DNA from: Pseudobdellovibrionaceae bacterium
GTDB taxonomy: Bacteria > Bdellovibrionota > Bdellovibrionia > Bdellovibrionales > Bdellovibrionaceae
Direction of reading: 5' to 3'
DNA: 22,195 bases
Assembly (NCBI GenBank): GCA_041288045.1
Contig: JBGGMM010000065.1
Location: 1-22,195, forward strand
Position numbers: made by a program. How positions within the stretch are numbered: position 1 is the first letter of the stretch; each line of letters opens with the position of its first letter. This document shows, in pieces, positions 1-3,000 of this stretch.

Positions 1-3000
1 CTGGCCGTGATCTTTTCAGCTTCTCTCACTGAAGTTGAAGAAATCTGCTCAAAGATCTCTAATTTCTCTTCTTTATTGAGATTTGTCTTTTGAAAGTATT
101 TTTGAGCCAGATTAATATGGCTTAAAGAAATTTGGCCGGATTCAATCTTCTCTTCAATCTCTGGAAGTTCTTTAAGTAATCTCATCGCTTTAATTCTTCG
201 ATAAGCTTGATCTTCCGAGTAGTTAAATTTTGCTACAGTAAATTCAAAGAGGGATTTAAATTCCAAAGCTGAATAAAGCCTTCTTCGATCGATTTCTTTT
301 AAGTGATGCAGAATCTCAGTGAGAAGCTCTCTTTCTTTTTGCACTAAGATTTCTGTATTTGAAAGCAAGCTTTCATCAGATAATTTTTTTAGATTCATAA
401 TTCCTCCGAAACTGAAAGCAACATAGCATGGGTTTTTAAAAGTGATTTTTGCTTAAGCATTTAAACTAAGAAAGAAGACATAAGAAAAAACACCAAGCTT
501 CTTGCAAGTATCAAAGCAAAGCTCACAGAGAAGAGATCTGTGCGGATAAAGTGGGATTACCAAGGTGTTAGAAAAACAAATTGCAGAAAAAGAATTCCTG
601 CAAAAACACTGTCAAAGAATATTTTATAAATAAAAAACATGATGCAGCGTTTTCTGAACGCCGCAAATTCCCGTATCCTAGAAATTGCTGCAGTGATTTC
701 TGAACAGCGCGAGAACCACCGGCCGGAATCTGCCGCAGCATTTTCTCATCACAGCCGGACCAGCACCACGAACCTTCGCATCCTAAAAAACTGCCGCGAT
801 GTTTTCTGAACGCTCCGAATTCAGTTCGGATTCTTCCGCGTGAATCAGGTGCCAATAAATAAAAAGCCCCGACCGAATTGGGCCAGGGCTCTTTCGTAAA
901 TCATGTGAATAAATAAAATTAAGCTGCGATCTTTTCCTGCTTTTGGACTGGAGCTGGATTGAGCAAGCCGCGCGAATTGAAGGACTGAATGCAATCCTTC
1001 CAGAATTTTTCTTTGATTTTGTTTTCGGCGGGGCCGAATTTGAGTTTTGGAAATTCGCCCTTTTCAAAGTAGCCCGTAAATTCTTCGTATTTGCAGCCGC
1101 GAACGACTTTCAGGAGTAAATTTAAATGAACCTCTGTCATGGGCTTGCCATCAACCAACATTTTGCGCAGGCCCTGCTCGGGTGTGTGAAGTAAAAAATC
1201 GTATAAACTGCCTAAGTCGTATTGACTCATGAATCCCCCTTGGTGATCACATGAATCTTATCGGCATTTCGAAGCAAATCTTAAAACCTTGGTCCAGTTT
1301 GTCTCAGACTGAGACAGTTTTAAAAGCGAACTCGACAGTGGCGCAGGAACTCTTCGCGGGTTTCTGGCTTGGTTTTAAAATGGCCACGCAGGTCGGACGT
1401 GGCAGTGGAGCTGTTATGATCCTGAACCCCGCGGGCAATCACACAGTAGTGCTTGGCATTCACGTGGACTGCCACATGATCGGTCCCCAGAACATACTGC
1501 AGGCAATCGGCGATCTGCTTGGTGAGTCTTTCTTGAACCTGGGGACGACGAGAGAAAAACCTCACCACCCGGTTGATTTTCGAAAGGCCGATGACTTTTT
1601 TATTGGGAATATAGGCCACAGTGGCAAAACCATCGATGGTTTGAAAATGGTGTTCACACACACTCAAGACAGAAATGTCCTGAATCAAAACCATCTGATC
1701 ATACTGCATTTCATTGTCGATCACTGTCATTTTCGGAAAGTGATCGGGGTTGAGACCACTGAAGATCTCGTTGACATACATTTTGGCAATTCGCTTGGGA
1801 GTTTCCCGCAAAGAATCGTTTTTCAAATCCAAGCCTAAAACCTTCATGATTTCAGTGAAGTGCTTGGTGATGATTTCAACCTTCTCTTCTGGAGAATGGG
1901 CAGTATCAATAACTGGTGTCGGCCGAACATGCGAGAGGATATCTCGGACTGAATAAGTGGTCGTGTGCTTGCCTTTTTTCATAGCTCATCCCTTTAGCGA
2001 AAAACTAGCTGCTTGTCTTGAGAAATCGGTTGGCAGCTTCAATCCCGGTGAGAATGGCACCATTCATAGTCCCCATCCAGTTGAGGCTGAGCCAATCGCC
2101 CGCCAAAGTCCATCCATCTGCAAATGGAATTTCAGGATCGAAATTCTGGAATTGCCCTGGCTTTAAATAGGCACGGCTTCCCTTGGACCAAGGATAAAGT
2201 CTCCAATTTTGAATATGACTGATATTTTCATAGGAGGAGCTGTTGGGATTGACCTTGGCTAAATCTTTTAAGGCCTGTTGAATGGAATGGAGGCCGGCTT
2301 GAGCGCCAGGATCCCCTCCGCATTGAACTTCCAGCAATCCATGCAAAGAACCCAGATTGGAGACCACCGGATCCCCGCCCTCAGCAACAGAGGTGGTCGG
2401 AAGATCCATGTACAACTTCCCCCCACTGCTCAACACCGGATCATCCTGCCAGAATCGATCTTGAAATCCCAAAATGATCTTGGAGTGATTGCCCAGATTT
2501 TGTTCTGAGATCTGTTTTTTCTTTCCTGCTGCGAATTTCAGGCGATCCCATCCAGACACTTGCCTGAGAAGTGCTGGCGGCAATGTGCAAATCACTCGTC
2601 GGCCTTTGATTTCAGTCACACCCGTCGGTGTGCGAAAATAAAGGCTCCAGGAGTTTTCATCTTCGTTTCTTTTAATTTCAGTCAACTGATGCTGAAATTT
2701 AACAAAGCGATCTGGAATCACTCCACCAATGCGATCATAAAGAGCCTGTGTAAAATTGGAAGTCCCGCCAGAAACCTTGAAAAATTTTTTTCCAGCTGGA
2801 CGGAATTGGTCCCTCACCCAGTGGACAAGATGAAGAGCCGAAATTTCATAGGGCTCGACTCCCCACTCACTGCGAATCACTTGTTCTAAAAATGATTTCA
2901 TCCAAGGGCGCATTTGAGTCTCAAGCCGATTCAGCAATTCTTTTCCCGACATTCGATCCAGAAGCACTGCCTTTGGCAATTGCTCTTGGTTTTTAGCACT

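Follow-up and report, generated by a model that had tools for sequence, protein, structure and literature searches.

A candidate single-gene mobile element of Bdellovibrionota with a ParB-like HNH protein, its own palindrome and a leader of fixed spacing

What kind of genetic unit is the truncated HNH gene at the start of this contig, and by what means could it have become so numerous in a single bacterial genome? The window, i.e. the whole stretch of 22,195 nucleotides analysed here (contig C65 of genome G000, a Pseudobdellovibrionaceae bacterium), opens with the N-terminal 132 codons of a gene for a protein predicted to combine a ParB-like HTH, a ribbon-helix-helix (RHH) and an HNH domain (3-398, reverse strand), preceded by a Shine-Dalgarno-like GGAGG read from the sequence (403-407, reverse strand). 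The gene is cut by the contig start, and synteny places its remainder on contig C212, a join that the survey's finding had proposed and that holds at 6 of 7 same-genus loci; in relatives, the host gene flanking the element in the window (919-1230, reverse strand) abuts the gene which on C212 comes after the C-terminal piece. The two pieces overlap by 176 nt, which are only 95.5% identical. That a repeat family breaks the assembly at contig ends was confirmed, since all seven N-terminal pieces (C65, C151, C53, C133, C83, C105, C144) and all eight C-terminal pieces (C212, C222, C39, C98, C137, C228, C83, C166) of the subfamily forming this burst lie at such ends. The copy identity of 90-94% given earlier holds approximately for six C-terminal pieces (89-94% over 345 nt), but the leaders vary more widely (80-96%). 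C230, previously taken for a whole copy, encodes a protein only 58-59% identical, so that no whole copy of the burst subfamily has been assembled. In run X1, depth reaches 45-70 over window positions 1-800 while most other bins stay at 2-8; this fits about 8-13 copies, depth itself being no measure of copy number. Purifying selection acts on the coding sequence of the family, and the HNH motif is kept intact: six copies compared differ by 229 synonymous and 134 non-synonymous codon differences, and the HNH motif pattern was matched in 164 of 201 loci. The copies are also mosaic, with 393 of 666 site pairs incompatible, which could in part reflect chimeric assembly at about 5-fold depth.

The protein had been described as carrying an HNH motif only, a label that is too narrow because its N-terminus models as a ParB-type binding domain followed by RHH. 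The family protein as a whole thus models as a ParB/KorB-type DNA-binding domain, an RHH and an HNH domain, a fold taken from the predicted model of a relative, L005. This model matches the DNA-binding domains of ParB, KorB, Spo0J and VirB with Z of 7.3-4.7 (KorB 1r71: Z 6.4, rmsd 3.2, 98 aligned residues) and the RHH proteins MazE6, TraM and MatP with Z of about 5. Four ParB-family entries stand among the top nine rows, with VirB at rank 46, the Z values being modest and below the caution level for helical domains. Further matches were to Noc (E 0.74, rmsd 2.7 over 116 columns) and to PF17762 (E 0.04), and Foldseek returned no match for the whole model at E ≤0.001. PF01844 (HNH) was found in all 64 members scanned and PF02720 in 20 of them at E ≤0.05 (best 4.6e-7); in a separate search, two PF02720 hits reached 12-15 bits against the curated cut-off of 24.4. 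The same Pfam scan found no Y1 domain, and the single ORF of the unit is unrelated to Y1 (hhalign probability 0.4). At E ≤1e-30 the family comprises 6,360 clusters at 50% identity, and searches of viral, phage and plasmid collections gave no whole-length relative.

Upstream of the gene lies a leader of two boxes at fixed spacing, which is new here. Box B (420-451, reverse strand; score 31.9, other genomes having served to train the matrix) follows the pattern AAAAWT..TTTWAAAANCCRTG-N-TANNNT and resembles the extended -10 half of a promoter, with TG at 428-427 and TATGTT at 425-420. Box A (602-625, reverse strand; score 23.7) consists of an AT-rich tract, TTGACA (615-610) and then TTTT, and thus resembles a -35 element, one that lies 190 nt upstream of the -10. 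The spacer in between (452-601, reverse strand) is fixed in length and poorly conserved, and shows a family-wide 11-bp periodicity of AA/TT/AT that was reached in 0 of 500 shifts. The distance from A to B falls into classes of 169-174, 178-181 and 187-192 nt at 173 of 201 loci; these classes are about 9 nt apart, i.e. no clean helical turn, and the spacing is absent at the other 28 loci, several copies of G040 among them. Where both boxes are strong, 154 of 155 loci belong to the three classes (training loci included), and in independent sets the spacing recurred at 31 of 45 and 27 of 29 loci. A scan for the leader that was blind to the protein gave 28 loci, of which 21 precede HNH-family genes, one a cut gene and two Y1 genes, and four had no ORF. 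G000 itself carries 18 leaders, nine before HNH genes and nine before Y1-transposase-like genes, with no host gene behind any of them at the thresholds used. An ordinary promoter in which box A is served by its own -10 at 17 nt was considered and set aside, there being no conserved -10 at that position. Likewise, neither a structured RNA, a single-strand hairpin nor A-B pairing gave a signal: folding showed none on either strand (mean z about -0.3, 44 sequences), and a scan of leaders from five sources found no Rfam family.

Farther upstream stands the array of the 22-nt motif. Its count stood, with 32 matches (≤2 mismatches) in this genome, none in each of 40 relatives and none for the reversed control; the window holds three (≤3 mismatches) where 0.00 are expected. 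Tandem arrays of 2-4 units, as reported, precede the copies, and the window's array has four, starting at 640, 686, 731 and 792 with spacings of 46, 45 and 61 nt. Unit 1 (640-665, reverse strand), delimited by motif scan and array comparison, is closest to box A and contains a 23-bp imperfect palindrome, TGCGGCGTT-CAGAA-AACGCTGCA (665-643, read from sequence), of which the motif is an off-centre part. Units 2 (686-707) and 3 (731-752) are degenerate, and unit 4 (792-813) resembles the copy inside the gene and marks the approximate 5' limit of homology between copies (all reverse strand). The in-gene copy coincides with the codons of SRAFRKRRV and accounts for 6 of 46 matches at ≤3 mismatches. 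Contigs of three DNA runs contain one array-length variant (joint 633-689).

Other subfamilies have palindromes of their own, both upstream and in the gene, sometimes with REP-like solo copies as well. The best 18-mer shared between the upstream region and a gene's own linker reached at least 16 in 13 of 52 cases, whereas controls from N-terminal coding sequence gave 1 and 0 of 52 and a cross-genome control gave 0.8% of 2,452 pairs; in a wider set the motif matched from upstream to gene in 27 of 152 against 3 of 149, so that a clear match concerns only about one fifth to one quarter of loci. Palindromes are amplified genome-wide where the family occurs (142 versus 1 in the control for G029, 32 versus 3 for G016 and 19 versus 3 for G020) and stay at background in G043 and G054, which are without the family. 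A gene flanked by its own palindrome family, dispersed in intergenic DNA, was found in G000, G016, G020, G029 and G007; G077, G065, G076 and G061 carry the motif at elements only, and solo spreading is therefore not general. In this genome the solo motifs are indeed mostly intergenic, with 27 of 29 outside long ORFs and 17 of 26 between convergent genes. One of them (9501-9522) belongs to a mosaic intergenic repeat of the window (9322-9560, forward strand), together with R1/R2 modules, a 19-bp hairpin (9430-9475) and R5; R1/R2 modules also occur upstream of Y1 genes. Among candidates that were dropped, the solo sites of G016 as deletion relics of whole elements have only about 20-50 nt in common with the gene linker and no leader pair; a common 'GCGTC' foot beside the palindromes is weak (13 versus 6-8 of 152; looser pattern 28 versus 4-14) and is not relied on; and of 46 metagenome loci found with 18 nt of the motif, none has the gene family and none agrees with this genome at the motif, i.e. 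they are chance matches and reveal no close strain.

Most likely, judging from sequence, the motif is the binding palindrome of the predicted DNA-binding HNH protein. Identical recognition helices go with the same motif in 19 of 20 pairs, a covariation confounded by kinship. Of the proposal that the motif is a recognition or landing sequence, recognition is the part that we retain, given that the motif lies upstream, within the gene and in some cases immediately behind the -10 box. Landing fared less well: no motif was seen at the empty L306 and L313 sites of relatives, the flanks there being only 75-84% identical, and the 3' flanks show no continuation of solo sites.

Taken together, the element measures about 1.25-1.5 kb and runs from its own palindrome(s) through box A, the fixed spacer, box B and the ORF to the stop codon. 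Orthologous intergenic sites, often next to terminators, carry a copy in some genomes and none in others, and all insertions examined are intergenic. The window's site is empty at 6 of 7 same-genus loci, and a terminator-like host hairpin adjoining the element (861-895, from sequence) has a similar counterpart at the empty site of G007 and G006. At the L313 site, gaps of 28-136 nt in seven genomes contrast with about 1.5 kb when filled; the L306 site holds a copy in G077 and G065 and is empty in G076. Persistence of copies is possible, since G077 and G065 have one site in common (85% identity). Copy number ranges from 0 to 15 among 44 genomes of one genus; over all genomes searched, family matches reach about 26 per genome. 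While the burst itself is species-specific, as had been claimed, the element type is not: it occurs across Bdellovibrionota, and 28 of 41 genomes match the family. Copies end close to the 5' palindrome on one side and close to the stop codon on the other; flanks of filled and empty sites, with no near-identical pair among them, are too diverged for exact junctions. The ends are ragged: of 37 pairs whose homology extends as far as the leader, 32 continue past TTGAC by a variable 5-63 nt; TTGAC is therefore not a target boundary and was rejected as an IS200-type target. The longest direct repeat that the 5' and 3' zones share most often has the length also commonest in controls (150 versus 294 pairs), with a slight excess at 9-12 nt, and inverted matches of at least 12 nt occur in only 4 of 168. 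Of the earlier picture of an autonomous HNH-nuclease element, a mobile, multicopy single-gene unit with filled and empty orthologous sites and no transposase inside survives; its autonomy is unproven, as Y1 proteins are co-resident and have the leader in common.

How, then, could such a unit spread? The reading to which we lean, though we give it somewhat less than an even chance, is that of a selfish single-gene element multiplied by nick-driven copying through host repair. The RHH would make the protein a dimer whose ParB-type HTH binds its own palindrome, as ParB binds parS; the bound protein may mark and possibly bridge the upstream and in-gene sites and repress its own gene. The HNH domain would nick, and host recombination or repair synthesis would copy the unit elsewhere, with no strand transfer of the transposase type, the same nick-and-repair perhaps seeding solo and tandem palindromes. 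The leader may be a sigma70 promoter split by a loop of curved DNA, through which a host factor (RNA polymerase together with DNA topology) could license expression or priming; such a split promoter read by a host factor would account for the presence of Y1, a nicking enzyme unrelated to HNH, behind the same leader in separate lineages. Alternatively, the leader could be the mobilization signal of Y1 (IS200/RAYT-like) enzymes, which would move both units in trans with the HNH protein as an accessory like TnpB or IscB. Half of the 18 leaders of G000 do precede Y1 genes, leader-bearing Y1 genes occur in at least two separate clades and, by eye, at 188-189 nt in G171, 14 of 29 solo motifs adjoin Y1-associated repeat modules, and PF01797 matches were obtained for G000 and for every other genome tested (5 of 5). 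We nevertheless think this unlikely: the 98% complete drafts G010 and G035 gave no PF01797 hit, yet have 12 and 11 family matches, the homology beyond TTGAC and the leader without hairpin signal do not suit it, and the leader is missing from 20 of 27 Y1 loci but accompanies the HNH family throughout the phylum. Ten of these 20 have TTGAC within about 120 nt of the start, mostly as part of an ordinary promoter (-35, 17 nt, -10).

It is also conceivable that no dedicated mobility is involved, i.e. that a regulated nuclease gene for addiction or defence is duplicated by rare host recombination and homogenized by gene conversion. The palindrome would then be no more than an operator, the leader no more than a tight promoter, and the ends would show how far selection and conversion reach. 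The mosaic copies, the ragged ends, the site held in common by G077 and G065, a palindrome directly behind the -10 in L010, L049 and L099, and the place of REP13E12 among the most frequent gene-conversion sites of M. tuberculosis (available part of PMC13061034) would all agree with this. Scattered copies varying from none to 15 within one genus, a site filled once and empty in seven relatives, 49 matches to a leader-bearing Y1 protein in G001, leaders before none of the host genes of G000 at the thresholds used, and solo palindromes throughout genomes, unexpected of a plain operator, make it doubtful in our judgement. A programmed switch is a further idea: the two consensus halves overlap exactly, with TTTT of box A falling on TTTW of box B, when set in the register of an 18-nt spacer, so that joining A to B by excising or looping out a spacer conserved in length and not in sequence would give a canonical promoter or a circle junction and turn the nuclease on in some chromosome copies. 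This seems quite improbable, as G000 has neither an A-B pair at 21-25 nt nor a convincing match to a fused-promoter matrix, and the contigs of three DNA runs, which drop rare variants, show no shortened joint across the leader. Finally, an array and a non-coding stretch of conserved length upstream of a gene whose HNH part resembles that of IscB might recall RNA-guided systems (OMEGA, HEARO, CRISPR, TIGR), with the leader as guide or scaffold RNA and the array units as repeats or guides. Given leaders without fold signal or Rfam family, an IscB model that matches just the HNH stretch with 19-48 bits, where 175 is the cut-off, spacers that recur between copies and an N-terminus that models as a DNA-binding domain, we regard this as very improbable indeed.

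Among known systems, the REP13E12 or DUF222-HNH genes of mycobacteria are likewise dispersed and multicopy, with a helical N-terminus, a C-terminal HNH and gene conversion between copies, but they belong to another phylum and the PF02720 matches here are weak and partial. The first description of REP13E12 is reportedly a 1999 paper. In published descriptions, on which this comparison rests, we found neither a leader of fixed spacing nor in-gene palindromes. REPtrons, i.e. RAYT/TnpA-REP genes with REP/REPIN (including class 3 TnpA-Y1), combine a nuclease gene with flanking palindromes of its own family, which are also scattered between genes (10.1101/279083 and PMC3116915, as far as available), much as here. 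Their enzyme, however, is a Y1 HUH protein usually of low copy, whereas the HNH protein has a predicted fold for double-strand DNA binding, its gene is itself multicopy and mobile, and the palindrome also lies inside the ORF and, by eye, has no GTAG/GTGG foot. IS200/IS605 elements with TnpB or IscB (OMEGA) resemble the unit in lacking terminal inverted repeats and target duplication and in carrying a nuclease, with an IscB-like HNH; in contrast to them it encodes neither Y1 TnpA nor a whole-length IscB, its ends have no hairpins and are not set sharply at a short target motif, and no RuvC or guide RNA was detected. DDE insertion sequences differ by terminal inverted repeats and target-site duplication, neither of them general in HNH units, and CRISPR/TIGR arrays by unique spacers, the HNH arrays having degenerate units and spacer types that recur across seven arrays. 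ParB, Noc and KorB may correspond to the model, whose residues 21-145 match their DNA-binding domain at modest scores; a predicted dimerization module follows and palindromes of 15-23 bp are associated. ParB and Noc, however, have an N-terminal CTPase domain, whereas the HNH-family match starts at residue 20-24 with only a short helix before it, and here the protein is fused to HNH with its own palindrome, of predicted binding, for each subfamily. Intron- or intein-borne homing endonucleases lie inside host genes, unlike the intergenic HNH insertions, and no intron family was found in five sources. Free-standing HNH homing endonucleases of phages are nicking nucleases whose gene is copied by host repair; they convert an allelic site, whereas the HNH family reaches many unrelated chromosomal sites. 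In the literature, mostly main texts accessible without subscription, we found no description of the HNH element or of a split leader.

A bolder version of the preferred reading, possible but tentative, is that the family represents a class of mobile element without transposase, integrase or reverse transcriptase, in which a ParB-like HNH nickase programmed by its palindrome marks its gene and copies everything from the 5' palindrome to the stop codon, under the licence of a sigma70 promoter with its -35 and -10 halves joined across a 150-170 bp loop. The leader would then be a portable, host-read mobility module captured by Y1 nickases more than once, and the HNH protein would stand beside RAYT as another type of enzyme from which REP-like repeats arise. 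The family is large and common in predatory bacteria, and DUF222/13E12-type HNH repeats are still without defined function in the available part of PMC13061034 and are listed as 'other repetitive elements' in that of PMC10589994. If true, -35 and -10 halves acting together over 170-190 bp would already make for an unusual promoter. The anatomy names mutable parts, i.e. palindrome, HTH, HNH, box A, box B and spacer length, and movement could thus be tested in laboratory Bdellovibrio. Furthermore, the natural series of HTH variants, each with its own palindrome of 15-23 bp and a nuclease fusion, could serve as a resource for DNA recognition.

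At the start of the window, an open reading frame (ORF; 398..3, minus strand, 132 aa) encodes the N-terminal piece of an HNH-family protein, the contig beginning inside the ORF. In the genome as a whole (G000, a 2.89-Mb draft assembly of 249 contigs, 83% complete, in which the window is contig C65), one subfamily is represented by seven N-terminal and eight C-terminal pieces, each at a contig end, and more distant members lie on contigs C230, C167, C134, C84, C81 and others; the family profile gives 27 matches in total, a few of which are unrelated HNH genes. Six of the C-terminal pieces show 89–94% identity, with 229 synonymous versus 134 non-synonymous codon differences, and the 22-nt motif arrayed ahead of the gene copies has 32 matches (at most two mismatches) in G000 versus none in 40 relatives and none for a reversed control. 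The repeated gene family and the motif reported in the survey's finding are hereby confirmed. The species-specificity claimed there holds for the burst and the motif, but not for the element type, as 28 of 41 genomes in the order match the N-terminal piece, up to 28 times each. At six of seven same-genus loci, the gene 3' of the C-terminal piece on contig C212 adjoins the ortholog of the window gene 919–1230, and therefore about 1.3 kb has been inserted at the window site, between two convergent genes and next to a terminator-like hairpin.

By profile, the family comprises 6,360 clusters (E up to 1e-30), with copy numbers of 0–15 across 44 genomes of another genus, and by record title the best 80 GTDB loci all belong to Bdellovibrionota except one. 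A 66%-identical copy (L164) comes from a bin recorded as actinobacterial, its contig being likely mis-binned. Pfam domain PF01844 is present in 64 of 64 members and DUF222, weakly, in 20 of the 64. In L005, a whole relative modelled with AlphaFold (mean pLDDT 89.7), residues 21–145 resemble, with modest scores (Z 7.3–4.7), the DNA-binding domains of ParB, KorB, Spo0J and VirB, residues 159–210 resemble ribbon-helix-helix modules (MazE6, TraM, MatP), and residues 218–286 form the HNH domain.

The motif is a portion of a 23-bp imperfect palindrome. Its 46 matches in G000 at up to three mismatches fall into ORFs (6, at codons of the protein linker), arrays (11) and solo sites (29); 27 of the 29 solo motifs are not within long ORFs, convergent genes flank 17 of 26, and 14 of the 29 adjoin other repeat modules. 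The pairing of an upstream motif with an in-gene copy recurs, with other sequences, in other subfamilies: the 200 nt upstream of the leader's TTGAC match the locus's own linker (at least 16/18) at 13 of 52 loci. N-terminal coding controls gave 1 and 0 such matches, and among 2,452 cross-genome pairs the rate was 0.8%. In a wider set, 27 of 152 loci matched, versus 3 of 149 downstream controls. In 26 of these 27 the in-gene copy sits at 53–75% of the gene. A single motif class is found at differing in-gene positions in different subfamilies, which argues for a role of the in-gene motif at the DNA level. An 11-mer of the same-genus genome G029 (142 occurrences versus 1 for a control) is located in upstream arrays, in the last codons of the gene and at two further in-gene places. 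The complete genome G016, with three family copies, has 32 palindrome sites versus 3; in G043 and G054, both without the family, the palindrome is at background, and in a further four genomes only elements carry the motif. Genome G029 also has about 40 tandem copies of a 20-nt unit that includes its motif (L454, C1 about 809,000–809,760) and a 19-nt array about 700 nt before a Y1 (IS200/RAYT-like transposase, PF01797) gene (C1:246,214–246,319). Many elements (L046, L049, L050, L051, L055, L037, L022, L303, L305) are preceded by microsatellites or short tandem repeats, some composed of the subfamily palindrome, which suggests that slippage synthesis may occur at the element 5' end.

Family genes are typically preceded by a long leader, a feature that the survey's finding does not mention. 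TTGAC occurs 190–275 nt upstream of the start codon at 75 of 97 loci versus 6 of 92 for downstream control stretches, as part of an AT-rich, -35-like box A, with an extended -10-like box B near the gene. When the best A and best B were chosen independently in 201 distinct whole loci, training loci included, the spacing was 169–174, 178–181 or 187–192 nt in 173, and in 154 of 155 where both boxes were strong; two independent sets gave 31 of 45 (35 of 80 loci having been removed beforehand as duplicates or too short) and 27 of 29. With matrices trained without G000, 25 A–B pairs within 320 nt were counted in this genome, 18 of them at 170–172 or 188–190; nine precede HNH-family genes, nine precede Y1-transposase-like genes and none precedes another kind of gene. 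A protein-blind scan of the phylum matched 35 of 251 genomes, and the 28 loci returned comprised 21 of the HNH family, one cut, two Y1 genes and four in which no ORF was found. Among 27 Y1 loci, the leader is present in seven (one clade) and absent from 20; in many of the leaderless ones TTGACA-17-TA forms an ordinary promoter, a point in favour of box A being a -35 element. In a tree of 28 Y1 proteins, the leader-bearing ones form two separate groups. A literature search for this leader found no description. Family members without it include L046–L048, L050–L052 and L054 (G040) as well as L003, L016, L019, L305 and L312, several being multicopy in G040. Partly duplicated leaders occur in G019 (L089, L090, L093; TTGAC and box B each present twice, 99 nt apart) and on contig C134 of G000 (two B boxes 139 nt apart). 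At L010, L049 (G040) and L099 (G036), the subfamily's own palindrome begins directly 3' of the -10 box, by sequence the classic operator position. Distant Y1 genes of several families (L279–L285, L291) share the promoter start TTGACATCGCT.

How could such a unit spread? Among 46 non-independent within-genome pairs, 45 lose homology no more than 50 nt from the stop codon; at the other end, 37 reach the leader, and in 32 of these homology begins 5–63 nt upstream of TTGAC. In some subfamilies 5' homology extends several hundred nt further. Neither a general target duplication nor a terminal inverted repeat was found across elements. Inverted matches between flanks were seen in 4 of 168 elements, and one element (L495, G171:C46) is flanked by an inverted, approximately 60-nt copy of its own upstream zone. 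G072 has an insertion at a site where seven relatives have none, and at a second site G077 and G065 share one that G076 lacks. At the ortholog of the G072 site (L313) in G071, L372 holds another kind of insert, about 1 kb long, and the terminator appears to be duplicated. The empty L306 and L313 sites showed no motif; in G007, the empty gap orthologous to the window's insertion site contains three palindromes similar to those of other subfamilies, the sole indication, and a hint, that palindrome sites may be reused. The G000 copies form mosaics, 393 of 666 site pairs being incompatible, to which low-depth assembly may contribute. Passive duplication with gene conversion is an unlikely explanation of the family's spread. 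The reading we favour, at a little under even chances, is a self-spreading unit that host repair copies after nicking; it fits the ragged ends, the mosaicism of the copies and the spread of the palindromes. We infer binding, nicking, looping and copying as its activities: a protein dimer would bind its own palindrome, the HNH domain would nick DNA, and host repair would copy the unit into new intergenic sites.

Since two unrelated enzymes, HNH and Y1, use the leader, its most plausible role is that of a split promoter that depends on topology, or of a priming site, recognised by a host factor. Its spacer shows an 11-bp AA/TT/AT periodicity (0 of 500 random shifts as strong, 20 groups) and, in 44 sequences, folds no better than shuffles; an excisable spacer between boxes A and B seems quite improbable, and RNA guidance more improbable still. 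That a Y1 enzyme acting in trans moves the HNH unit is about as unlikely as passive duplication. No PF01797 match was found in G010 and G035, with 12 and 11 family matches, and G001 has 49 Y1 matches, its HNH-family profile matches being at HNH-domain level only; each enzyme is therefore found multiplied without the other, but G000 and five other genomes tested do carry Y1 genes. The two multicopy Y1 subfamilies of G000 (C27:12250–12750 (protein P0001, 29 matches), C25, C86, C234 and C242; C100, C71 and C108) score below the cut-offs of both IS200 and RAYT models, showed no recognizable IS ends, and have C-terminal tails that vary among copies, like those of the HNH family.

The self-spreading HNH element would operate as a hybrid of a free-standing homing nuclease and a REPtron (10.1101/279083; PMC3116915), and is probably a distant relative of REP13E12/DUF222 repeats (PMC13061034; PMC10589994). 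On the defining features tested, it does not qualify as an IS200/IS605, DDE, OMEGA or RAYT system, and a literature search found no description of the element; that it constitutes a new class of mobile element is conceivable, if doubtful.

A mosaic intergenic repeat also occurs twice in the window (9322–9560 and 16758–16936); its long hairpin has stems that differ between copies yet remain paired. Its R1 module occurs 36 times in G000, and R1/R2 modules lie upstream of several Y1 genes; the repeat looks like a separate REP/BIME-type family. Nearby, window 9583–9596 would read as VTDTP, a peptide that the C108/C71 Y1 proteins also have in their linker, and may be a second example of a coding motif dispersed between genes as a repeat.
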